Source: a virus
DNA: 64,000 bases
Strand: one strand, 5' to 3'
Virus record (IMG/VR): IMGVR_UViG_3300035703_000033
Location: 32,001 to 96,000 of that record
Both the position numbers and the translations under genes were made by a program. Below the pieces are notes generated by a model, which saw only the letters and a program-made list of their open reading frames with translations, had not been told where the DNA came from and did not search any database. Numbering within the stretch: the first letter of the stretch is position 1; each line of letters begins with the position of its first letter. Of this stretch, positions 3,256 through 17,421 are shown piece after piece.

Positions 3256-4800
3256 ATGGCAACAGTAAACAAAAACTTTAGAATTAAAAATGGTTTGGTT
3301 GTTGAGGGATCAACAGCTACCGTAAACGGCGAGGATATCTTAACCAGATCCCAAGCCGATCAATCTTATATAGTCAATTTAATTGGCGGTACAGCAACTT
3401 CACAAAATACACCAGATACTGTTGTTAAAAGAGACGGATCTGGCAACTTTGCTGCAGGAACAATTACAGCAAACCTTACAGGTGATGTAACTGGTACAGT
3501 TTCAAGCATTTCTAACCACGATTCAGATGATTTATCAGAAGGTTCTTTAAACCTATATTTCACAGATGCTCGTGCAAGAGCTGCTCTATCAAGCGGAACA
3601 GGTATAGATTATAACTCATCAACAGGTGTAATAGCTGTTGATAACACAATTGCGACAAAGACATACGCAGATAATGCAGCAGAGTCAGCAGTAAATGCTC
3701 TCGATACAGATGATATCGAAGAGGGAGCATCTAATTTATACTTTACAAATCAGAGAGCGCTTGATGCAACAGCGGCTGCTTATGACGCAGCAGGTTCTGC
3801 TTCAACAGCACAGACTGCAGCACAAGGCTATACAGATTCTCAGCTAGAAGATTATACAACAACAGCACAGCTAGATACAGTTATTGATAATCTAGGATAT
3901 TTAAAGTCAGCAGACCTTACAGGATATGCAACAGAAGGATATGCCGATGGCGCAGCATCTAATGCACAATCAGCAGCAGAAGCAAATGCATCTACATATA
4001 CAGATAATGCCATAAATGCTTTAGATACAGACGATATTGAAGAGGGTACAGTAAATAAGTACTACACAGACACTAGAGTTTTATCATGGCTTTCTGATAA
4101 AGGTGGAACTGGAATTGATATTGACTCTGTAAGTGGTCAAATATCTATAGATAATACAGTTGCAACAACATCTTATGTCGATACAGCAATTAATAATCTT
4201 GTTGATGGAGCTCCAGGACTCCTAGATACTCTAAATGAGATTGCAGCAGCAATTAATGATGATGCAAATTACTTTACAACAGTAACAAATGCAATTAATG
4301 CTAAGCAGAACAACTTAACAGCTGGCGCAAATATTGATATCACAAACGATACAATATCTGTAACTGGTTTAGATACAGATGACGTTGCAGAAGGCACAAA
4401 CCTATATTTCACAGATGCCCGTGCTCGTGATGCAGTAGATGGAACAGACCGCTCATTTACATCTGTAGCAATTAATGAAGTTTCAAAGGAAGTTGCTGCA
4501 ACTACTGGTAATATTGCAACAGCAGCAGCCACAACAGCATATTCTTGGCTAAAGACAGATTATAGAAGCGCCAAGTTTATGGTTAAAATTAAGAATGGCA
4601 CACATACAGAGGTTTCTGAAATTCTCGTAACTCTTGATACTTCTGATAATGTTTATCTAACAGAATACGGAATGTCTTCAACTAGCGGAACATCTCTTGG
4701 AACAATTTCAGCAGATGTCAGCTCAAATGATGTAAGAATCCGTGTAACACCAGCAAACAACAACTCAGAAGTTATTGTAGCTGGAACACTATTAATATAA
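3256..4800 (+). CDS. tail fibre protein with four D(T/S)DDxxEG..NLYFT repeats
   Basis: Repeats visible in the translation; APGLLDTLNEIAAAI fibre motif. Confidence 0.7.
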   Translation: MATVNKNFRIKNGLVVEGSTATVNGEDILTRSQADQSYIVNLIGGTATSQNTPDTVVKRDGSGNFAAGTITANLTGDVTGTVSSISNHDSDDLSEGSLNLYFTDARARAALSSGTGIDYNSSTGVIAVDNTIATKTYADNAAESAVNALDTDDIEEGASNLYFTNQRALDATAAAYDAAGSASTAQTAAQGYTDSQLEDYTTTAQLDTVIDNLGYLKSADLTGYATEGYADGAASNAQSAAEANASTYTDNAINALDTDDIEEGTVNKYYTDTRVLSWLSDKGGTGIDIDSVSGQISIDNTVATTSYVDTAINNLVDGAPGLLDTLNEIAAAINDDANYFTTVTNAINAKQNNLTAGANIDITNDTISVTGLDTDDVAEGTNLYFTDARARDAVDGTDRSFTSVAINEVSKEVAATTGNIATAAATTAYSWLKTDYRSAKFMVKIKNGTHTEVSEILVTLDTSDNVYLTEYGMSSTSGTSLGTISADVSSNDVRIRVTPANNNSEVIVAGTLLI

Positions 4801-5234: not shown

Positions 5235-7598
5235 ATGGCAACAGTAAGAATTCAACTAAGAAGAGGCACAGCCGCTGAATGGACAGCCACAAACCCTGTC
5301 TTGGCCGCTGGCGAAATGGGTCTGGAGACAGACACTGGCGATTTTAAATTTGGTAATGGTACAGACACATGGAGCAACCTTGCATATTCATTAGGTAATG
5401 CAATAGATGACTACATTCCTTTATCTGAAAAGGGTGTAGCTGACGGAGTTGCTACCCTAGATTCATCAGGTTTAGTACCACTAGCACAGCTTCCAGGGGC
5501 AGCAGCTTTGGATGCAGAGGTAAGCTCAGCAATTTCTGATCATAATTCAGATACCACAAATGTACATGGTATAGCTGACACATCGATATTAGTAACAACA
5601 TCAGGAACACAAACATTAACTTCAAAGAGCTTAACTTCACCAGCTCTTACTGGAACACCTACCGCTCCAACAGCAGTAGTAGGAACAGATACAACTCAAA
5701 TTGCTACAACTGCATTCGTACAAGATGCAATCGAAGCAGTTGTAGGTGCAGCTCCAGCAGCATTAGATACATTGGCTGAAATTGCAACATCTTTAAATGA
5801 TGATGCGGATTTGGCTGGAACATTAACAACATCAATTTCAGAGAAGGTAGCCAAGTCTGGCGATACAATGTCTGGAGCTCTTGATATGGGGTCTAACAAG
5901 GTTACAAATCTTGCAAGTCCTACAACAATTTATGATGCAGCAAATAAGTTTTATGTAGATTCTAGATCAGCAGCAGATGTCGGAGGACACGCAAGCACCA
6001 CAACAAATGTTCATGGAATCGCAGATACTACACAATTAGTAGTGCAGTCTGATGAAAGATTAACAAACGAAAGATATCCTGTTCCTTTATCTGTTACAGA
6101 AGGCAAGATTGCTAATGCTGCTGTTACAGAATCAAAGATTGCAGATAGCTCAGTATCTAATTCAAAGCTTGCAGATGGATCAGTTACTACTGTAAAGATT
6201 GCAGATGATTCTGTTAGCACAGCAAAAATTGCTGATAATGCAATTTCTACAGATAAAATTGCTGATGCTGCTATAACAAATGCTAAAATAGCAGGAAACT
6301 CTATAACTGCTTCTTTAATGCAGGACAATTCAATAGATACAGCTGCAATAGTTGACAGTGCTGTAACTTCAGCTAAAATTGCAATTTCAGCAGTTGAGGA
6401 ATCAAAAATTGCAGATGATGCAGTTTCTACTTCTAAGATTCTTAATTTAGCTGTCACAGAAGATAAAATTAACACATCAGCTGTTACAGAAGGCAAGATT
6501 GCTAATGCTGCTGTTACAGAAAATAAAATCGCAGATGGTTCTGTAACTTCAGCTAAGATTGCAAATGGATCTATAGTTAATGAAGATATTTCAACTACTG
6601 CAGCAATTGCTCAGTCTAAAATTGCAGATTTAACAACAGATCTTGCAGCCAAAGCACTTGATTCAGATCTTGATGCACATATAAATGCAACTACTTCGGT
6701 ACATGGAATTGCAGACACATCTGTGCTTGCAACAGATTCTGATGTAAGTGCTGCACAGACAGCTGCAGAGGCGCATGCAGATTCTGCAGTATCTACACAC
6801 AATTCTGATACAACTTCTGTACATGGAATTTCTGATACTTCTCAGCTAGCATATAAGAATGCTGCAAATCAGACATTTACAGGAAATATGGAAGTTGATG
6901 GAAATCTTGTAGTAGATGGAGACTTTACTGTAAATGGAACAAACTTCTCTGCTTCAGCAACATCAATTGTCATCGAGGACAACATGGTTCAGCTTGCACA
7001 TCAAAATGCTGCAAATACAGTAGACCTTGGTCTTGTAGTTGCATATAATGATGGTTCAGCAAAGCACTCTGGTATTGTAAGAGATGTTTCTGCAGATAAG
7101 TGGAAGCTATTTAAGGGTGTAACAACAGAGCCAACAACCACAGTTGACTTTACACAGGGATCCCTAGATGATCTTCAGGTGAAGAACCTAGATGCTGTTG
7201 CAATTACAGCTACTGGAGCAATTACAGCATCTTCTTCTGGAGTAGTCTTTACAGATGGCACTCAGACAAAAGCTGGAGTTCCGTCTATCACACCAATTGC
7301 AGAAAAGACTGCAAACTATACACTTTCAAGCTTAACAGAAAGAGATACTCTTATTGAGGTAAATCATACAGGAGGAACTGCAGTTACAATTACTGTACCT
7401 TCAGATGCTACTGTAAACTTCCCAGTAGGAACATCAATCGATATTTTAAGAACAAATACTGGAGAAGTAACAATTGCTGGCTCAGGCGCTACAGTGAATG
7501 CTACACCAGGATTAAAGTTAAGAGCTCAGTGGTCAAGCGCAACTCTATTTAAGAGAGCGGCAAACACATGGGTACTATTCGGAGACCTAAAGGCATAA
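5235..7598 (+). CDS. long tail fibre: Mtd-N/hyaluronidase-type N-terminal anchor plus decapeptide repeats
   Basis: IQLRRGTAAEWTATNPVLAAGEMGLETDTG N-terminus; AVTxxKIADG repeats; C-terminal LRAQWSSATLFKR..WVLFGDL domain. Confidence 0.75.
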   Translation: MATVRIQLRRGTAAEWTATNPVLAAGEMGLETDTGDFKFGNGTDTWSNLAYSLGNAIDDYIPLSEKGVADGVATLDSSGLVPLAQLPGAAALDAEVSSAISDHNSDTTNVHGIADTSILVTTSGTQTLTSKSLTSPALTGTPTAPTAVVGTDTTQIATTAFVQDAIEAVVGAAPAALDTLAEIATSLNDDADLAGTLTTSISEKVAKSGDTMSGALDMGSNKVTNLASPTTIYDAANKFYVDSRSAADVGGHASTTTNVHGIADTTQLVVQSDERLTNERYPVPLSVTEGKIANAAVTESKIADSSVSNSKLADGSVTTVKIADDSVSTAKIADNAISTDKIADAAITNAKIAGNSITASLMQDNSIDTAAIVDSAVTSAKIAISAVEESKIADDAVSTSKILNLAVTEDKINTSAVTEGKIANAAVTENKIADGSVTSAKIANGSIVNEDISTTAAIAQSKIADLTTDLAAKALDSDLDAHINATTSVHGIADTSVLATDSDVSAAQTAAEAHADSAVSTHNSDTTSVHGISDTSQLAYKNAANQTFTGNMEVDGNLVVDGDFTVNGTNFSASATSIVIEDNMVQLAHQNAANTVDLGLVVAYNDGSAKHSGIVRDVSADKWKLFKGVTTEPTTTVDFTQGSLDDLQVKNLDAVAITATGAITASSSGVVFTDGTQTKAGVPSITPIAEKTANYTLSSLTERDTLIEVNHTGGTAVTITVPSDATVNFPVGTSIDILRTNTGEVTIAGSGATVNATPGLKLRAQWSSATLFKRAANTWVLFGDLKA
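6091..6630 (+). repeat. 30-bp / 10-aa tandem repeat (VTxxKIAxxA)
   Basis: Period visible in DNA and protein; 6091-6131 is identical to 6481-6521. Confidence 0.85.
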
Positions 7599-7608
7599 GG
7601 AGCAAATA

Positions 7609-8946
7609 ATGGCAATTAATAAAAGATCAGGAACAGGTTCTTCCGCACAGGATAACTTTATCGGACCAAATCCAGTTACTGGATTAACAGCAACAGATGT
7701 TGGTTCTGGAAGAGCATACAACGATGGTAGAATTGATTTGTCTTGGACAAACCCGTCTACTGGAAATACTCCAACAGGGTATAGAATTATTCGTGGTGGA
7801 ACTGAAATAGCAACAGTAGCTCATCCTAATAATACATACTCAAATACTGGGCTTTCTTCAGCCACTTCATATTCGTATGTAGTTCGTGCATATGATGATT
7901 ATGCTACAGCAGCAGATTCAAATACTGCTAGTGCTACAGCAACAACAGTTCCAGCTACAATGAGTGCTCCAAGTGCTACAGCTGGAGTTGATAAGGACAC
8001 ATTGTCTTGGACAGCACCAGCAAATGGTGGTTCAGCAATTACACTATATAGATGGACATCAAGCGACGGAAAGACTGGAACATCTACTGGAACATCAGTT
8101 GATATTTCTCAAGAAGCAAACACTGCACAAACATATCAAGTTAGAGCAGAGAATGCTAACGGAGCAGGAGTGTATTCTGGAAATTCAAATCAGGTTACAA
8201 CCCAGGCCCCAAGCTTCTTCGGTCCTCCAAGCTTCTTCGCCCCTCCAGGGTTCTTTGCCCCTCCAGGGTTCTTCGCCCCTCCAGGGTTCTTCGCCCCTCC
8301 AGGGTTCTTTGCCCCTCCAGGGTTCTTCGCCCCTCCAGGGTTCTTCGCCCCTCCAGGGTTCTTCGCCCCTCCAGGGTTCTTTTCTCCACCAAGCTTTTGG
8401 AAGTCTGTTGGAATTAACACTTTGATTAGAACACCTGGCGGAATGGTTTCTGCAGGACAGTTGGAAATTGGAGATGAGGTAATTGGTTTACGTATACCAG
8501 GTATACCAGATAACTATTGGTTACTTGATGACGGTTCATATGGCTCATACTCAGATTTTGTAATATCAGAAGAGCAATTAAATAATGCAGAAGAGACAAT
8601 TGTAACTGTTACAGGTAAGAGACTTCATGAGAATGCTGGAGCTGCAGCTGTTAATGGTGATATTTATACTATTAACCACTACATTCTAGCCAAGAGAAAT
8701 GGTGAAATTAAGTCTTTGAATGTTAAGGATTTATTGTCAGATGATCTTATATATAACTATCAGACAAAAGATTTTGTTCCAATAGAATCTCTTGAGATAA
8801 ATGAAGAAATTACAATTCAATCATATTCTATAAACGTAGAGCCATGGGACTTCTACTTTACAGAAAACGGTTTAACCTTTGATATGCAGGCGCTATCAGA
8901 GTCTCTGTCTGGATCTGATGATCCAGATGGTTCTGGCCCCCTATAA
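7609..8946 (+). CDS. 2x FN3 + (FFAPPG)n repeat + C-terminal Hint-like domain protein
   Basis: FN3 motifs (LSWTNP..GYRI; GLSSATSYSYVVRAY; YQVRAENANG); Pro-rich repeat; Hint blocks SVGINTLIRTPGG..LEIGDEV, TINH, YSINVEP..YFTENG. Confidence 0.8.
   Translation: MAINKRSGTGSSAQDNFIGPNPVTGLTATDVGSGRAYNDGRIDLSWTNPSTGNTPTGYRIIRGGTEIATVAHPNNTYSNTGLSSATSYSYVVRAYDDYATAADSNTASATATTVPATMSAPSATAGVDKDTLSWTAPANGGSAITLYRWTSSDGKTGTSTGTSVDISQEANTAQTYQVRAENANGAGVYSGNSNQVTTQAPSFFGPPSFFAPPGFFAPPGFFAPPGFFAPPGFFAPPGFFAPPGFFAPPGFFAPPGFFSPPSFWKSVGINTLIRTPGGMVSAGQLEIGDEVIGLRIPGIPDNYWLLDDGSYGSYSDFVISEEQLNNAEETIVTVTGKRLHENAGAAAVNGDIYTINHYILAKRNGEIKSLNVKDLLSDDLIYNYQTKDFVPIESLEINEEITIQSYSINVEPWDFYFTENGLTFDMQALSESLSGSDDPDGSGPL
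8215..8394 (+). repeat. 18-bp tandem repeat: 8 x ttcttYgcccctccaggg (FFAPPG) flanked by FFGPPS and FFSPPS
   Basis: Counted directly in the DNA; core 8233-8376. Confidence 0.97.
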
Positions 8947-8953
8947 AATATAG

Positions 8954-9493
8954 GTGAAATTTAAAGTAACAAGTACTGGTCAGGAGATAGAGAAATCTAT
9001 CTCCTATCAGTCTTTCCCAGAAGAGTTATATAATGAGGGTATATGGGGTCATTTTGCATTTATAGAAGATAAAGAAATGAATATTCGTGTTATATGTTCT
9101 GCTTATAACAATGATAGATATTCTCCAGGTACTGTTGTCGTATCGAATAAAATATTTAATGATTTTCCAATTGCTCAAAGTGCATGGAATATAAGTAATA
9201 AAATTAGTAGAATGTATGTTGATCCGTTTTATAGAAATAAAAAGGTTGCAACTTATAGTGTTATAACAAATGATATGTTAGCTAGAAAAATGGGTTATGA
9301 AATATGGTCTAATATATACGGAGAAAAAGGCGGTACTATAGCAGGCGACCAACTTTATAATAAAATATACGATTTAGGTTTTGAGGTAAAGAAAGCACAG
9401 ATAGACCTAAACGATATTTTTCAATATAGAAATTTTTCACACCCAATACATTACATAGATAAGAGACCAGTTTATGATGAATCAAGTCTATAG
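8954..9493 (+). CDS. GNAT-like acyltransferase
   Basis: RMYVDPFYRNKKVAT resembles GNAT motif A (V.P.YR..G.A). Confidence 0.5.
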   Translation: MKFKVTSTGQEIEKSISYQSFPEELYNEGIWGHFAFIEDKEMNIRVICSAYNNDRYSPGTVVVSNKIFNDFPIAQSAWNISNKISRMYVDPFYRNKKVATYSVITNDMLARKMGYEIWSNIYGEKGGTIAGDQLYNKIYDLGFEVKKAQIDLNDIFQYRNFSHPIHYIDKRPVYDESSL

Positions 9494-10049
9494 CAAAACC
9501 AAATTTTTAAAGAAAGAAGTCAATTTTGACTTTGATATAAAAAATATAAAAGATATGTCTTTTAAAAAAGATGAGTTATTTTTTGTTGATAATGGAAATC
9601 TTAATAAAAATAACGAAATTGTTTATAAATCAAAAAATATATTTACTATATACAGCAGAGACATCCACAGCCTATATAAAAGTATATCTAGTCTATTAGA
9701 TGAATCTTGTGATTTATATGAAATAAAAAAAGATATACAGAACTATATGATTTATGGCAAAATTTCAGAGTATGGTGAACATAATAGAGGAATATGGTAT
9801 GATTTTCCAGGAATAAATATTCCATACTTACACGGGTTTTTCTTCTTTGACTCCAGCTATGAGGTTAACTTTAAAAATCAAAATAATTTAGTTAAAGAAT
9901 TAATAAATACCAATACAATTATTATCAATAAGCCGACAGATTTAATAAACATTAAATCAGAAAAAGAGTCAGAGGTAATTGAATTCTATATAGTCCCTAT
10001 TGATATGTTAAAACATAATGAACCAGGCGTATGGGTTCCAATATTATAA
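9474..10049 (+). CDS. degenerate 2OG-Fe(II) oxygenase-like protein
   Basis: WYDFPG..LHGFFFFD pattern where HxD..SGxYY is expected; island context. Confidence 0.35.
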   Translation: MMNQVYSKTKFLKKEVNFDFDIKNIKDMSFKKDELFFVDNGNLNKNNEIVYKSKNIFTIYSRDIHSLYKSISSLLDESCDLYEIKKDIQNYMIYGKISEYGEHNRGIWYDFPGINIPYLHGFFFFDSSYEVNFKNQNNLVKELINTNTIIINKPTDLINIKSEKESEVIEFYIVPIDMLKHNEPGVWVPIL

Positions 10050-10084: not shown

Positions 10085-10786
10085 GTGATGTTAGAAAATG
10101 CAGAGTACCTAGCAACTGGAATAGTTGTATATAGAGATGTTTTTAAAAAGGAACATAACTATGTAGAGAGATTAGAAAAGGCTTTAGGGTCAGTAGAAGA
10201 AAATAGATACGGTTGGAAGCCAGGGTATACTGGCTACGGAGCAAAAAATCTTAATTATAGAGATTGTTTTGATTTTAAGATTAAGCATAATGAAGACGGC
10301 TCTCTAAGCGCACATATGGACTGTATTAAAAAAGAAGATCAAAACGAAACAGACAAAGATTTAATTAGAATTTGGGATGATGCATATTATGCACAGGTTC
10401 CACCAGTTGACGACTATAGAAGTATGTTTAGCCTGGCACCATTAAAATATTGGGAATCTTTTAATTTTATTAAGTATGGACCAGGACAGCATTTCCAGGT
10501 ACATTCAGATCATGGATATTCTTATACGTGTGTTCTTTCTTCAGTTGGGTATTTAAATGATGATTATGAAGGCGGAGAGCTTTATTTTGATAAGCTTAAC
10601 CTAAAGATTAAGCCAAAAGCAGGAGATCTTTATCTATTCCCATCTTCATATGTATACTCTCATGCTGCAATGCCAGTCACCTCTGGTACTAAGTACTCTA
10701 TAGTTACAATGTTAGATTATTTAGAAACAGCACATACTCCAGAATATAGAAACCTGGAAGCAAGATACTCTAAAAGCCTTCTTTAA
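10085..10786 (+). CDS. 2OG-Fe(II) oxygenase, prolyl-4-hydroxylase-like
   Basis: HSD; YLNDDYEGGEL; H..PVTSGTKY. Confidence 0.9.
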   Translation: MMLENAEYLATGIVVYRDVFKKEHNYVERLEKALGSVEENRYGWKPGYTGYGAKNLNYRDCFDFKIKHNEDGSLSAHMDCIKKEDQNETDKDLIRIWDDAYYAQVPPVDDYRSMFSLAPLKYWESFNFIKYGPGQHFQVHSDHGYSYTCVLSSVGYLNDDYEGGELYFDKLNLKIKPKAGDLYLFPSSYVYSHAAMPVTSGTKYSIVTMLDYLETAHTPEYRNLEARYSKSLL

Positions 10787-11481
10787 TGTATTCTATAACA
10801 GCCTATAATATAGGAGGTTTAGCTACCATTAGTCAGTCTCCAGTAAAAAGAGATTGGATGGAAGATACATATGATAAGCATGCCTATAATTGTTTCCCAG
10901 TAACAATTACAAATTCATTAGGGTGGAGCATATCTTTTCCAGAAGAAATTTCTTTTATTTGGGATGGCATATCAGATAGTTCAGCAGACCACGTTAAAGT
11001 TTTAAGTGGAGAAAAGTATGTTTCAACTAGAAGAGCTAATGGAACCATAAGCTTTAATTCTGGATTTGGTTTTAAAACACAAAATGACTTAAGCTTGTTA
11101 TGCATGCCAACACCAAACCAGTTTATAAGGGGTGCTCAATGTTTTACTACTTTAATATCAACATCTTTTTTTAATGGAGACTTCCCTATAGTTTGGAAAA
11201 TTACTGAGCCTATGATAAAAATAGTAATTCCTGCAAACACGCCAGTTGCTAATATTATTCCTATATCTTTAACAGAATTACAAAATTCTGAAATAAATTT
11301 TGAACCAGTAAGCAATATGCCATCCAGTAAATGTCCACCAGAATTTGCTATAAAAGCTGTTGAGAAAGCATACCAGACTGGCGGATGGACAAATTTTTAT
11401 AGAGATGCAGTAGATGCATGCGGGAACAGTATTGGGTCGCATGAAATAAAATCAATAAGATTGAAGGTAAATAATGCCTAA
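10786..11481 (+). CDS. DUF6065-like protein
   Basis: RDWM..AYNCFPVTITNSLGW signature; IPANTPVANIIP. Confidence 0.65.
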   Translation: MYSITAYNIGGLATISQSPVKRDWMEDTYDKHAYNCFPVTITNSLGWSISFPEEISFIWDGISDSSADHVKVLSGEKYVSTRRANGTISFNSGFGFKTQNDLSLLCMPTPNQFIRGAQCFTTLISTSFFNGDFPIVWKITEPMIKIVIPANTPVANIIPISLTELQNSEINFEPVSNMPSSKCPPEFAIKAVEKAYQTGGWTNFYRDAVDACGNSIGSHEIKSIRLKVNNA

Positions 11482-12187
11482 AATAACATTTCATTCAAAT
11501 AAAACTTATAATCAACCAGGACATGAATTAAATCCTAAACCAGCAAAGAAGAGCGTTCCTCAATGGTTTTCCGAATCAAGCAGGTACTGGTTTCCAGAAG
11601 TAAAAGACTCTCTTTCATTTAAAGCTTGCCCAGCATTAGTAGATGCATTTCTTGCAGGTTATGTTTTAAAAACTCCATGCGACATATATTTCCAAAAAGA
11701 GTCTAGCTCTGATGTTTTTAAGCACACTGATATATTTAAAGTTTATAAAGAACCAGGATATGATGATTTTTGTTGTTCAAGACCAGATATGCCAGGGTTT
11801 CCCAAGCCACACGGATTTGATAAACATTTTCATTGGTTTCCTAATTGGATGCCAGGGCTTGAGCCAGGCTACAGCGCTTTATATGTTCATCCATTAAATC
11901 GTTTTGATCTACCGTTCATCACCGTCTCTGGTATAATTGATAACGATAAGATGAATACCCCTGGTTTAATGCCTTTCTTCCTTAAAGAAGGTTTTGAAGG
12001 TCTGATTCCAAAGGGAACTCCATTTGTTCAGATAATTCCATTTAAAAGAGAAGATTGGGAATCAGAAGAGCAGATGTATTCCATAGAAGAGATATTTGAA
12101 AGACATAATTATCAAGCAAATAAGTTTAGAGTTCCAGAGGGCGGGGCTTATAAGAAAAAAGTTTGGTCAAGAAAGAGGTATGATTAA
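11474..12187 (+). CDS. DUF6065-related protein (possible dUTPase-like fold)
   Basis: KACPALVDAFLAGY; HPLNRFDLPF; SGIIDND; IPKGTPFVQIIPF. Confidence 0.55.
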   Translation: MPKITFHSNKTYNQPGHELNPKPAKKSVPQWFSESSRYWFPEVKDSLSFKACPALVDAFLAGYVLKTPCDIYFQKESSSDVFKHTDIFKVYKEPGYDDFCCSRPDMPGFPKPHGFDKHFHWFPNWMPGLEPGYSALYVHPLNRFDLPFITVSGIIDNDKMNTPGLMPFFLKEGFEGLIPKGTPFVQIIPFKREDWESEEQMYSIEEIFERHNYQANKFRVPEGGAYKKKVWSRKRYD

Positions 12188-12906
12188 TGAATATGAAACG
12201 TTGGGACACTAGCGGTAATTTAGCTAACTTTAATGCTAAGTCTATAACTCCATCTGGATTTTTTGGAGATTCAGATAAAAATATAGTTGAGGTTGAAGAT
12301 TTTATTACAGAAGAAGAAAATAATATATTTTTAGAGTTTGCAAGAAAAAATTCTTCTTTTGATGAAACACCAACAGAGTTTAATGAAAATGGCAATCTTA
12401 TTTATGACGAAAGACCGTGGGTAAATAGAGTAGCAACTGGAGAGACTCTATTGAAGAGTGGACCACACGTGATACCAGTTCTTACACATATGGTTACAAG
12501 ATTTCAAAAAATAATTGAAGATTTTTTTGATGTAGAAGTTACTCCTACAGGACCAGCAATTGTTAGGTGGCCAGTTGGAGCAAGACAAGAGCCACATGCA
12601 GATAAAGAGTTGCATGAGGGCCCAGATGCAGGAAAACCAAATTCTTTCCCGTGGTATGATATTGGAACTGTTTTTTATTTTAATGATGATTATGAGGGTG
12701 GAGAATTATATTTTCCAAAACAAGGTGTTGAGTTTAAGCCAAAAGCACGAGCTGCATATTTTTTCCCAGGCGATATGAACTATATTCATGGAGTAAGGCC
12801 AATAACAAAGGGATGTAGATACACTGCTCCATATTTTTGGACAATAAATAAGTTACCAGAAAAATATAATGGCCCAAAGGAGTTTAATTATGTGCCACAT
12901 AACTAA
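12187..12906 (+). CDS. 2OG-Fe(II) oxygenase, prolyl-4-hydroxylase-like
   Basis: HAD; YFNDDYEGGEL; HGVRPITKGCRY. Confidence 0.9.
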   Translation: MNMKRWDTSGNLANFNAKSITPSGFFGDSDKNIVEVEDFITEEENNIFLEFARKNSSFDETPTEFNENGNLIYDERPWVNRVATGETLLKSGPHVIPVLTHMVTRFQKIIEDFFDVEVTPTGPAIVRWPVGARQEPHADKELHEGPDAGKPNSFPWYDIGTVFYFNDDYEGGELYFPKQGVEFKPKARAAYFFPGDMNYIHGVRPITKGCRYTAPYFWTINKLPEKYNGPKEFNYVPHN

Positions 12907-13615
12907 ACATAAGGAAGAATGTTTTACAATTGAGCATTTTTTAACAGAAGAAGAATGTAAAGCTATTATTTCGTATACGGAGTGGTTAGCTAGCAATAAC
13001 ATTTTAGAGTGGAATCAAATATCGTTTTATGATTCATTTGCAATGGGCTTTTGGGAAGAGGATCCAACTGGTGGCTGTGAGTTATTTGGACTTCCCAAAA
13101 ATTATTTTCATGGTGTTTTAAAACAAAAAATAAAAGATGCTTGTGAAAATGCTTTAGGAAAAGATTTAGCTGAGGTTAGTTATCATGCTCAAAAATGGAA
13201 AGATGGAGCATATGCATCATTTCATTCCGATAACTCTGACGAGCATGGAAACCCTTCAGAGTTTGAAAGAAGTAAGTATGCTGCATTTATCTATCTTAAT
13301 GAAGACTTTAAAGGTGGAAATTTAAATTTTAAACATCACGATGTAAACATAAAACCAAAAGCTGGTATGCTTGCAGTTTTTGCAGGCGGGTATACAAATG
13401 AACATGAAGTTACAAAAGTTCATGGAGGTACTCGTTATACCGTAGGATCATTTTGGGATAACGCAGATGCTGTTTATACTGAAGAGCAAATTAAAGAAAG
13501 AGAAGAAAGATTAAAGAAAACTAGAGCTGAGCAAGATTTAACTTATCAGCAGTGGGCAAAGCAAAAAGAATTGGGAATAACTCAAGACTATGTTGGAAAA
13601 TACGGTGAAGTATGA
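12869..13615 (+). CDS. 2OG-Fe(II) oxygenase, prolyl-4-hydroxylase-like
   Basis: HSD; YLNEDFKGGNL; HEVTKVHGGTRY; start position uncertain. Confidence 0.9.
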   Translation: MAQRSLIMCHITKHKEECFTIEHFLTEEECKAIISYTEWLASNNILEWNQISFYDSFAMGFWEEDPTGGCELFGLPKNYFHGVLKQKIKDACENALGKDLAEVSYHAQKWKDGAYASFHSDNSDEHGNPSEFERSKYAAFIYLNEDFKGGNLNFKHHDVNIKPKAGMLAVFAGGYTNEHEVTKVHGGTRYTVGSFWDNADAVYTEEQIKEREERLKKTRAEQDLTYQQWAKQKELGITQDYVGKYGEV

Positions 13616-14469
13616 ATAGAATAGAAATTTATCCAAGAGTAGTTGTGTATAAAAATACGCTACCTAGATGGAAAGAGTATGTAGATCTTTTAAAAAAGTC
13701 TGAATCAGAGCCACCAAGATACTACTTCAAGGATTGGGAAGATTGGTATGGTTTTGGAAAAATGATGAATCTATCAATGAATAATCCAAATGTTTCATAC
13801 AATATTGATTCTGATGATGAATATGCAAAACTACAGCAAGATTTTTTACAAGATGTAACAGATGCCTATTATAATGTTACAGCAGATTATGTAAAAACAT
13901 ACGGCATCTCTTTACCAAATTGGGTCAATAATGGTATATCGATTTGCAAATATTGGGAAAGCCCTAAGCAAAATGAAATGGCAATGCACTATCATACAGA
14001 TTATGTTGGCGCAAATGCAGATGCCCCAGGTAAAAAATTTGCTATTACTTGTACAATTTATATTAATGACGATTATGATGGCGGAGGACTATCATTTCTA
14101 AGGGAGGATACTGGTGATGTTATTGACTATAAGCCAGAGGCTGGAGATATAGTTGTATTCCCATCAGGAGATCCTATTACTGGAGCTTCTCATTATTTCC
14201 ACGGCGTAGATAGAGTCGATAATGGAGAAAAGTATTTTATAAGATGTTTTTGGTCATATGAGTTTGAAGGTACAAAAGAGTGGCATGAAGGTGTTGAAAA
14301 GTATGGAAAAGATATATGGGAAGATATGCAGCTTGAAAAAATGAAAGAGGATATAAAGTCTGGTAAATGGCATAGATATCTTGTCATGCCTGGTGAGGAA
14401 GACCCAAAGAAAGAAAGGTCTACCCCATTCTTTTTAAGGGATAAAGATGCTTATAAAAAAATTAGATGA
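13612..14469 (+). CDS. 2OG-Fe(II) oxygenase, prolyl-4-hydroxylase-like
   Basis: HTD; YINDDYDGGGL; HGVDRVDNGEKY. Confidence 0.9.
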   Translation: MNRIEIYPRVVVYKNTLPRWKEYVDLLKKSESEPPRYYFKDWEDWYGFGKMMNLSMNNPNVSYNIDSDDEYAKLQQDFLQDVTDAYYNVTADYVKTYGISLPNWVNNGISICKYWESPKQNEMAMHYHTDYVGANADAPGKKFAITCTIYINDDYDGGGLSFLREDTGDVIDYKPEAGDIVVFPSGDPITGASHYFHGVDRVDNGEKYFIRCFWSYEFEGTKEWHEGVEKYGKDIWEDMQLEKMKEDIKSGKWHRYLVMPGEEDPKKERSTPFFLRDKDAYKKIR

Positions 14470-15061
14470 GAATATTATCTATTATGAAAATGTATTAGAT
14501 AACCCATATGAATTTATTGAAAAAATAGAAAGTTTAGATATATCTAATAATAATTCAAGCCATATTAGCAAGTGGGAAAAGTGGAGTGCAAGTAATGCTG
14601 ATCAGCAGTACGGCATTTCTAAAAATGGTAGATTTTCTAATATGCATTACAGCACTGCGGAAGATATAGAAACCTCATTAATTTCGTATAAAATTAAAGC
14701 AATATCTGATTTATGTTTTGCTAACTATAAAGCTAACACTGGAGTGGATATGCTTAAGTTACCAGATTACTTTAGTATTAGGAAGTATGATACTGGAGCA
14801 GACATGGGAAAGCACGTGGATTCAGAGGATCCAACAGATAAGTCTCACCCAGTAGTTTCTGGAGTTCTTTATTTAAATGATAATTACGAGGGTGGAGAAA
14901 TTTACTTTCCAGAACAAGAAATTAAAATAAAGCCAAAAGCTGGAAGTATGATCATGTTTCCATCCTATAGACCATACTTTCATCACCCATTAGCAATTAC
15001 TAAAGGAAATAAATACATGATTCCATTTTTCTGGTATCCATTAGAAACGGTTTGGGAATAA
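14447..15061 (+). CDS. 2OG-Fe(II) oxygenase, prolyl-4-hydroxylase-like
   Basis: HVD; YLNDNYEGGEI; HHPLAITKGNKY. Confidence 0.9.
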   Translation: MLIKKLDENIIYYENVLDNPYEFIEKIESLDISNNNSSHISKWEKWSASNADQQYGISKNGRFSNMHYSTAEDIETSLISYKIKAISDLCFANYKANTGVDMLKLPDYFSIRKYDTGADMGKHVDSEDPTDKSHPVVSGVLYLNDNYEGGEIYFPEQEIKIKPKAGSMIMFPSYRPYFHHPLAITKGNKYMIPFFWYPLETVWE

Positions 15062-15735: not shown

Positions 15736-17421
15736 ATGTCATATTTAGCATCAGTACTCAAAGACTACCCAGTGGGATTCTGGCCACTTTCTTCAAGTGC
15801 AGAGGATAAGTCTGGATGCGGAAATGACGGGGTTGTAAGTGGCACACATCAGTTCGGCAAAAATTCTTTAATACCGTACTCTGGTGAATCAACAAGAATA
15901 GCTGGATCATCGTATATATCAATACCGCTAGATAAAGATTATTATTCTTCTTCTGTTTTGCCAGCAATTGCAAATAGCTCAAGTTCAACAAAAGAGTTTA
16001 CTATAGAGCTATGGTTTAAGCCAGAGTCTGATTTCTTACAAGAGTCTCCTTTGTTTGCTGACGTACTAAACGGCACTGGAATTTTTTATCAAAACGGTAA
16101 TATAATATTTAAAATAGAAGACGTTTCGTTAGAGTATACATTAAGCAATATAAATAAATCTTTATATATCGCATGTATTTATGGTGTTAATAGTATGTCA
16201 ATATATGTTGACGGAGAAATTGTTGCTACAAAAAATACAGACGGTTTTAAATTTGAGGCAGAGGGTGTAGATTTTCAGGTTGGCCCAGTCGTTGGACCGT
16301 CGGATTCATTTTTAATTAATGGAATTTCTGTTTACAGGTATGCATTAAGCTCAGATCAAATATATGGAAGATTTTCTAACTTATATAATATACCTCCAAT
16401 ACAAATAGCAGATCCAAATAATGGTTCATTATTTGAGATTAAAAATAAGGCATATGGTAGAAAATTTACATTTAGTTATCCAATCGATAAAGACTGGTCA
16501 GAAATAGCAGAAAGCCCTGTAAGGCGCAATGAAGGTTACGGGTACATAGAACTAAGCCAAACTGATGGCGAGGTCTCTAAAGAGCTTATAGACGTTCTAT
16601 CAATACCATCTATGGAAGAGTACAACCACTCAGTAATAGAATGGGAGGGAGACAATGGAGTATCAATCTATATATCTCAAGATAACTCTACTTTCAATGA
16701 ATGCAAAAATGGTCTTCCTCTTCCAATATCTGATTTTACAAAAAGTGTTATTTATTTAAAGATAAAATTTACTTCAAGTAATGCTCAGCGCTTTAATCCA
16801 AGATTACATAAATTAAATATATCTTTCTTTAAAGATGTAAGAATTTATTCAGAAAATAGCGCCAGCTATATTGCAAAGTCAACGGGCGGAAGCCATGATT
16901 TTGGTTTCACGTGGAACAATAAGCCAATACTCTCACAGTCTAAATATAACGGTCTACGGGCAGAGGCTAAATTCAGTTTATACACAGACAGAGATGTCCA
17001 TACCCTAGAAACCTTTTATACACCAGATTCTCTTGAGGCAGGATCATTATTTGATCAGCTTTCATGGAATGGGGCGGGAACACTAAGTAATCCCAATATC
17101 CTAGCCCTATATATCAACGGAGAAGACAAGACATCAGAAACATCAGTCTCTGGCTTATTTGAGGTAGGACAATTACACCATGTTGTAGTAGTCCTATCAG
17201 ACTCAATTACTGAAGAAATAGTATTTAATGATGGATCAAATGAGGCCCTATATCAGTATATAACCATATATGAGAGCCAAATGGATGCAGTTACTGCACA
17301 GGCTCATTATGAGATGTATGTGGATAGTGTCTCTACTATTGCCGTCGGCGGGTCACTGTCAATGACAGAAAATTCAATAAACTACTATGATAATGATTGG
17401 GTAGTGATACAAAATATTTAA
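15736..17421 (+). CDS. LamG/concanavalin-A-like domain minor structural protein
   Basis: PVGFWPL; FTIELWFK; SIYVDG; VYRYALSSDQI; second HHVVVV module. Confidence 0.7.
   Translation: MSYLASVLKDYPVGFWPLSSSAEDKSGCGNDGVVSGTHQFGKNSLIPYSGESTRIAGSSYISIPLDKDYYSSSVLPAIANSSSSTKEFTIELWFKPESDFLQESPLFADVLNGTGIFYQNGNIIFKIEDVSLEYTLSNINKSLYIACIYGVNSMSIYVDGEIVATKNTDGFKFEAEGVDFQVGPVVGPSDSFLINGISVYRYALSSDQIYGRFSNLYNIPPIQIADPNNGSLFEIKNKAYGRKFTFSYPIDKDWSEIAESPVRRNEGYGYIELSQTDGEVSKELIDVLSIPSMEEYNHSVIEWEGDNGVSIYISQDNSTFNECKNGLPLPISDFTKSVIYLKIKFTSSNAQRFNPRLHKLNISFFKDVRIYSENSASYIAKSTGGSHDFGFTWNNKPILSQSKYNGLRAEAKFSLYTDRDVHTLETFYTPDSLEAGSLFDQLSWNGAGTLSNPNILALYINGEDKTSETSVSGLFEVGQLHHVVVVLSDSITEEIVFNDGSNEALYQYITIYESQMDAVTAQAHYEMYVDSVSTIAVGGSLSMTENSINYYDNDWVVIQNI

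Follow-up and report, generated by a model that had tools for sequence, protein, structure and literature searches.

Known Hint domains include inteins, Hedgehog processing domains, bacterial intein-like (BIL) domains and pretoxin modules. Here, a divergent domain of this superfamily is described in a phage protein, directly behind a collagen-like repeat. The protein is encoded in a 64,000-nucleotide stretch of viral DNA (the window), comprising bases 32001-96000 of the IMG/VR record IMGVR_UViG_3300035703_000033; the record measures 109.6 kb, with an estimated completeness of 92%, and its portal protein shares 59% identity with Streptomyces phage portals. The gene in question (7609..8946; all coordinates refer to the plus strand of the window) was taken from the list of open reading frames (ORFs) and encodes 445 amino acids (aa), arranged as two FN3 domains, the repeat, the Hint domain and a 20-aa tail. 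It is the final gene of a tail-fiber block, of which the neighboring genes at 3256-4800 and 5235-7598 match PHROG tail-fiber families. Four close homologs of the protein share 63-80% identity with it, and the locus is syntenic in more than 20 IMG/VR contigs.

Domain organization and fold of the C-terminal region

The two FN3 domains, the putative mature cargo, occupy residues 1-201 (7609..8211) and are recognized by Pfam PF00041 in two stretches (E-value 2.1e-7); the N-terminal profile also matches FN3 structures of titin and DSCAM, and an FN3 match was all that a search of GenBank phages with the whole protein returned. The following repeat, delineated with TRF and a periodicity script, covers residues 202-264 (8212..8400). 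TRF reports an 18-bp unit present in 9.3 copies (8215-8381), and in the translation Gly, Ala or Ser recurs at every third position over 21 triplets, with FF and PP alternating in the X-Y positions, which gives the pattern (G-F-F)(A-P-P)n ending in S-F-W. PPG motifs are present in this segment, and in close relatives, where the number of repeat units varies from 8 to 20, the unit GFFGPP yields a perfect Gly-X-Y periodicity with GPP triplets. Release of core peptides from the repeat in the manner of ribosomally synthesized and post-translationally modified peptides was weighed but discarded: the units directly follow one another, with neither spacers nor protease sites between them, the three-residue periodicity is collagen-like, and the sequence type varies among lineages with a stalk-like composition being retained.

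The repeat stops directly before FWK/S, where sequence comparison places the predicted scissile junction (8401..8406) between Lys265 at position -1 (aag, 8401-8403) and Ser266, the putative Ser1 nucleophile (tct, 8404-8406). The Hint domain, defined by an AlphaFold2 model, Foldseek and profile matches, extends from S266 to D425 (8404..8883). Block B corresponds to T354-I-N-H357 (act att aac cac, 8668..8679), as assigned from the family alignment and the intein 9hth, and blocks F/G, assigned by alignment to the same intein, correspond to residues Y406-D425 (YSINVEPWDFYFTENGLTFD; 8824..8883). The translation ends with a 20-aa tail, M426-L445 (MQAL..DPDGSGPL), which together with the stop codon at 8944-8946 occupies 8884..8946; residue +1 after D425 is thus Met426, a non-nucleophile. 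A first-pass annotation, prepared from the letters of the window alone, had proposed a Ser1 Hint domain fused immediately to the repeat and ending in F-D instead of His-Asn. Checked against the ORF 7609..8946, its coordinates and motifs (K265/S266, TINH and Y406..FD) are all correct: the TRF repeat stops just before FWK/S, and F424-D425 stands at the end of blocks F/G.

The domain is not seen by any Pfam, PHROG or NCBIfam model, and a single-sequence search of the PDB was likewise negative, its sole match being a chance one to a transferrin receptor (E-value 0.9). Because no curated model detects the domain, its assignment to the Hint superfamily relies on the predicted fold and on profile matches. 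For residues 244-445, the AlphaFold2 model has a predicted local distance difference test score (pLDDT) of 83.5, with values of 90-98 in the core blocks and with a disordered repeat and tail. The best 50 Foldseek matches of this model in the PDB are all Hint domains, with TM-scores of up to 0.80 on the target, so that structure prediction upheld the Hint domain of the first-pass annotation. The top match is the Tetrahymena BIL2 domain 6y75 (E-value 2.5e-7, probability 1.00), and further matches include the BIL domain 2lwy, many inteins and Hedgehog 6tyy (E-value 4.7e-4). In BFVD, the top matches are proteins of uncultured Caudovirales phages, some of which are named "PASTA_pknB", "Fibronectin type III" or "Hint domain containing".

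Family profiles match the Clostridium thermocellum BIL domain 2lwy (E-value 3e-6), the gp41-1 intein (6riz being among the structure matches) and the Ser1 intein of Aes123 PolB1, 9hth (E-value 6e-5). T354-H357 of block B aligns to T-A-D-H of 9hth, and blocks F/G align residue by residue to VYDIEVDGNHNFFGNDILVHA of this intein, whose crystal form ends in His-Ala, the terminal Asn having been mutated (N159A). In intein numbering, S407 corresponds to F:4, D414 to F:13, F424 to G:6 and D425 to G:7, and the conserved core of these blocks reads E411-P412-x-D414. When 1.84 billion representatives were searched exhaustively with phmmer, 92 relatives emerged, the weakest of which (P0090, P0092, P0094 and P0095) have the canonical Cys1 and end in HN; among these, P0094 scores above the Pfam cut-offs for PT-HINT (PF07591, 51 bits), Intein_splicing and Hint_2. 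Since the remote relatives, the profile matches and the predicted fold agree, the Hint fold goes far beyond what chance would give and can be taken as secure, and residues 266-425 are assigned, on the basis of the model and sequence comparison, to a genuine but divergent Hint (Hedgehog/intein-fold) domain. Two tandem C-terminal Hint domains were observed in P0082 (1108 aa) and P0094 (476 aa).

Conservation across the family

Conservation was counted in an alignment of 79 domain sequences, 70 of which cover position 266. This position is Ser in 67 sequences and Cys in three, no other residue being found. His357 of block B is invariant (79/79), as is the motif [S/T]xxH (79/79), in which position 354 is occupied by Ser in 55 sequences and Thr in 24. 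Residues E411, P412, D414, T418 and L422 are each conserved in more than 90% of the sequences and fall into the region of the family signature S-I-N-C-E-P-Y-D-x-F-F-T-E-x-x-L-V-x-D, which is equated with intein blocks F and G. Position 424 (G:6) is mostly His (39 sequences), Phe (18) or Tyr (16), and position 425 (G:7) is Asp in 63 and Asn in 12, that is, one of these two residues in 75 of 78 sequences. Upstream of the nucleophile, position -1 is Lys in 34, Tyr in 11 (Y/S junctions in 10 and Y/C in one) and Asn in 10 of the 79 sequences, and in nearly all of the 80 viral loci it is Lys, resulting in a K/S junction.

The C-terminal junction is more diverse. HN, followed by a non-nucleophile, is found in the four remote Cys1 members. 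HD is found in 35 members, 30 of them with Ser or Thr at +1 (HD/S in 27), usually followed by a 4-aa tail, S-x-x-I/V. The subfamily to which the window protein belongs has F/Y-D with any residue at +1, FD/M in the window. The 20-aa tail is kept in the closest subfamily only, and most family members have the 4-aa tail. As the N-terminal catalytic residues are invariant and the C-terminal junction drifts, selection appears to act on the N-to-O acyl shift and N-terminal cleavage. A separate subfamily (L071, L079-L081; P0059, P0064 and P0073) has FTPFG repeats, an HD/S junction and a conserved tail of 30-90 aa (..LYQQWK..); to judge from these junctions, its members are the best splicing candidates within the family.

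In nearly all of the 92 representative clusters and the 80 viral loci, the domain lies at the very C-terminus, and in the viral loci its start coincides with the nucleophile despite unrelated repeats upstream. The low-complexity repeat preceding the junction differs by lineage and includes FFxPPG, FFPP, PFGFT, NYG plus PP, DPSFPA, NEPAF and poly-Pro. The family is represented in at least 291 IMG/VR contigs, and a pattern-based scan of 185,579 species genomes gave only two contigs of metagenome-assembled genomes (MAGs), each of ~10 kb; within the limits of such a scan, the family looks phage-restricted. These two contigs (L082 and L083), one assigned to a Saccharimonadales MAG and the other to a Gammaproteobacteria MAG, are probably mis-binned phage contigs.

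Linked GNAT-like and oxygenase genes

The gene immediately downstream (8954..9493) encodes a GNAT-like protein of 179 aa, characterized by AlphaFold2 modeling with Foldseek and by a language-model search. The model has a pLDDT of 71, and its Foldseek matches, although weak (best E-value 2.5e-3, TM-score ~0.35), are all GNAT acetyltransferases; in the language-model search, the nearest clusters are viral Acetyltransf_1 (score 0.95). The protein has no Pfam match and belongs to no curated family. At the position of the acetyl-CoA loop (R/Q-x-x-G-x-G/A), the window protein has R-N-K-K-V-A and its relatives R-R-R-G-Y-W, and the motif E-P-P-R-D-P-x-[YF]-P-x-[IV]-W-x-x-x-R-x-G-G is conserved at the C-terminus of distant relatives. 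When viral contigs were searched with the GNAT-like family, a Hint-terminated gene was found upstream of the GNAT-like gene in 40 of the 40 loci that hold enough upstream DNA. The gap between the two genes is at most 75 nucleotides (nt) in 38 of these loci and ~600 nt in the other two, in both of which an oxygenase match was mapped between them.

Further downstream, Pfam identifies an array (10085..15061) of five paralogous prolyl 4-hydroxylase (P4H)-type 2-oxoglutarate (2OG)-Fe(II) oxygenases of PF13640 (10085-10786, 12187-12906, 12869-13615, 13612-14469 and 14447-15061), a DUF6065 gene (10786-11481) and one further ORF without a family match (11474-12187) interleaved among them. The oxygenases score 30-58.7 bits against a cut-off of 27 bits, and the best PDB sequence match of the first one is the Bacillus anthracis prolyl 4-hydroxylase (3itq/5hv0, E-value 1.3e-6), followed by the collagen lysyl hydroxylase LH3. 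At least one P4H-type oxygenase is encoded downstream in 37 of the 44 non-redundant loci with 7 kb or more of downstream sequence, and loci whose pre-Hint repeat is richer in Pro tend to have more oxygenases (Spearman rho 0.66, without correction for relatedness). Collagen prolyl 4-hydroxylases canonically target PPG, and it is plausible that the P4H-type oxygenases hydroxylate these motifs in the repeat.

Two conserved ORFs of this gene module, 9474-10049 and 11474-12187, have no family match, and their homologs persist in loci without oxygenases (e.g., L068-L075); the former shows no BLASTP similarity to oxygenases. Between the portal gene and the oxygenase array there is an ORF of 561 aa (15736-17421) without a match in PHROG, Pfam or NCBIfam; judging by its location, it may be a head or packaging gene.

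Predicted self-cleavage, alternatives and significance

From the fold, the motifs, the conservation and the gene linkage, we infer that the domain is a removable C-terminal pro-domain of a phage fiber or decoration protein and cleaves itself off at K265/S266, a reading to which a probability of about 0.65 is assigned. Ser266, aided by Thr354 and His357 of block B, would attack the carbonyl of Lys265 in an N-to-O acyl shift, and the resulting Lys265-Ser266 ester would be resolved, by default with water as the nucleophile. Both the timing of this cleavage and what becomes of the acyl group are likewise put forward conditionally. The expected products are a fragment of ~27.3 kDa, FN3-FN3-(G/A/S-FF-G/A/S-PP)n ending in ..SFWK, and a Hint-plus-tail fragment of ~19.8 kDa. 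As a divergent representative of a well-known superfamily, the domain most likely acts in a known way.

B-type BIL domains, reportedly described by Amitai et al. in 2003 and roughly equivalent, as we take it, to Pfam Hint_2 (PF13403), are the closest functional precedent, with kin also in the Hog-type Hint domains. They share with the window domain the Hint fold, the presence of the intein N-terminal motifs, a degenerate C-terminal motif and the location in variable, non-conserved proteins, and the BIL structure 2lwy is among the top matches by both fold and profile. N-terminal self-cleavage has been reported for BILs, the B-type members of which retain every intein motif but the C-terminal one and cleave N-terminally (PMC7765530). 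Unlike B-type BILs, the window domain has Ser1 instead of Cys1, and its family is phage-encoded, is placed C-terminally after Pro/aromatic repeats and has its own signature and a linkage to GNAT-like and P4H-like genes. Moreover, the window protein gives no match to PF13403 at E-values up to 1, and its relatives remain below the cut-off of 28.4 bits (21.3 bits for P0092 and 14.6 bits for P0013); because it fails the Pfam Hint_2 model, the domain is not filed as a member of Hint_2. Nor does it belong with the A-type BIL/PT-HINT domains (PF07591), as the window protein ends in FD and has no Pfam match, the remote relative P0094 alone passing this model.

The Hog-type Hint of Hedgehog is similarly a C-terminal domain that removes itself from an N-terminal cargo, has no terminal Asn and does not splice, but its junction is G/C, in contrast to K/S in the window protein. 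Since only 20 residues follow the Hint core, a sterol-recognition region is absent, and cholesterol-type transfer by the window domain is unsupported. A protein of related architecture occurs in a cultured jumbo phage: gp108 of Dickeya phage vB_DsoM_AD1 (YP_009811540; L084:3002-4441) is a structural-module protein in which a C-terminal Hint domain comes after a collagen (Gly-X-Y) region. With 22-26% identity to the HD-type domain, this Hint domain is distantly related, and it differs in having the canonical Cys1 (G/C junction), T-H-E-H and H-N/T; the AD1 protein also contains a true Gly-X-Y collagen region of ~90 aa and an Ig-like domain, and no GNAT or P4H gene is found in the annotated stretch of its neighborhood. 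Its annotation, "virion structural protein", is an unverified label, and homologs of the AD1 protein occur in Erwinia and Yersinia jumbo phages. Functional analogs of a C-terminal module that is cut off a fibrous protein are the Peptidase S74 intramolecular chaperone domains of phage tail spikes and fibers and the procollagen C-propeptide, which are listed as removed by cleavage at Ser after assembly; their fold and chemistry are unrelated, and the window protein gave no sequence or fold match to them.

Several observations weigh against self-cleavage at K265/S266 as the complete account. Ser esters resolve slowly in the absence of a dedicated nucleophile. The Ser1 and His conservation could in principle be structural. 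Where class 1 inteins have Asp at F:4, the window domain has Ser407, and Asp414 stands in place of the His at F:13, so that the catalytic geometry differs from that of the characterized inteins. The conserved terminal Asp (Asp or Asn in 75/78) suggests that the C-terminal junction still matters, and N-terminal cleavage as the only reaction may therefore be incomplete. In inteins, a C-terminal Asp or Gln can cyclize, and ~5% of the working inteins have no His at G:6 (PMC4031507); for these reasons, by analogy, C-terminal cleavage at D425/M426 through Asp cyclization, freeing the 20-aa tail, is possible. The link to hydroxylation, in turn, is a plausible one drawn from the gene neighborhood and the PPG motif only. 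The first-pass annotation had proposed that the domain performs only the N-terminal acyl shift and cleavage, or transfers the upstream protein to a nucleophile. The N-terminal step agrees with the conservation of Ser/Cys1 (70/70) and [S/T]xxH (79/79), the degenerate C-terminal junction and Met at +1, and is favored by the comparison with known systems; its exclusivity is put in doubt by the terminal residue, and the transfer is conjectural, given the missing sterol-recognition region.

One version of such a transfer is ligation, in which the Lys265-O-Ser266 ester would be attacked by an amine or hydroxyl of an acceptor located either on the host envelope or on a virion protein. The FN3-stalk would then be anchored covalently via its C-terminus, as if by a built-in single-turnover sortase comparable to the cholesterol transfer of Hedgehog, and the GNAT-like protein might catalyze or trap the acyl step. 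This is thought unlikely, even though all 80 loci show the order of variable binding domains, Pro-rich stalk and C-terminal cleavage site, the Lys at -1 is almost invariant in the viral loci, which is unusual for inteins, and the GNAT-like gene is coupled to the Hint gene in all 40 loci. The top structural matches are moreover the BIL2 domains of the Tetrahymena BUBL locus, which have been reported to mediate conjugation. Against ligation, neither a region resembling the sterol-recognition one nor an acceptor has been identified, the usual substrate of GNAT enzymes is acyl-CoA and the GNAT-like neighbor has an atypical CoA loop, and a GNAT-like protein that acetylates something else would explain the linkage equally well. 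A still more doubtful extension would join all of the linked genes into one pathway, a self-sufficient ligation and maturation system of freshwater phages: the P4H would hydroxylate the stalk, the Ser-Hint domain would form the ester, and the GNAT-like protein would aminolyze or trap it, where the trap may be, e.g., acetylation of the freed Ser1 amine, leaving the FN3-stalk anchored on the virion or host surface. If true, this would be a Hint-based sortase-like mechanism, undescribed for any virus.

Alternatively, the domain could be a catalytically silent Hint fold that serves as a permanent C-terminal knob with a structural, oligomerization or receptor-binding role and is never cleaved. C-terminal knobs are common in phage fibers, the 20-aa tail is conserved within the subfamily, and the penultimate His, the terminal Asn, the Asp at F:4 and the His at F:13 are all lost or replaced. 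However, Ser/Cys1 and the block B His, which are usually lost in inactive Hint-like domains, are the best-kept residues here, and the domain boundary coincides with the nucleophile in every lineage, with unrelated repeats upstream, which makes a silent knob improbable. A far less credible reading is that the domain splices, as a true intein or a splicing-competent BIL, and thereby joins Lys265 to the 20-aa tail. Inteins such as Aes123 PolB1 (9hth) and gp41-1 have blocks A, B, F and G that are alignable to the window domain, Ser1 inteins exist and 9hth is cysteine-less. Asp replaces the C-terminal Asn in some inteins (PMC4031507), and splicing is conceivable for the 30 of 35 HD members that end in H-D/S or T, some of them with tails of 30-90 aa. 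In the window gene, by contrast, protein splicing is excluded because +1 is Met and G:6 is Phe; in addition, there is no homing endonuclease, and the relatives keep the same terminal position instead of occurring sporadically inside a conserved host protein. A mobile intein was rejected on the same grounds, i.e., the lack of a +1 nucleophile and of an endonuclease and the fixed terminal position.

In a full-text search of the literature, this architecture was not found described, the only related reports being of ordinary inteins in phage terminase or RNR genes; some UniProt relatives bear the automatic label "Hint domain containing protein". What was not met in the searchable literature is the phage-specific family itself, with its signature, its position behind a stalk and its linkage to GNAT-like and P4H-like genes. 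The decay of the junction from HN through HD/S to FD, with invariant N-terminal residues, provides a natural series on a half-reaction under selection, and a small Ser-dependent N-cleaving Hint domain could serve protein engineering. The strict pairing of the family with a GNAT-like protein, together with its frequent pairing with collagen-type prolyl hydroxylases beside PPG-containing repeats, offers a hypothesis, open to testing, for the many 2OG oxygenases of aquatic phages that are still unexplained. If the domain is active, it would represent a new maturation route for phage host-recognition structures.

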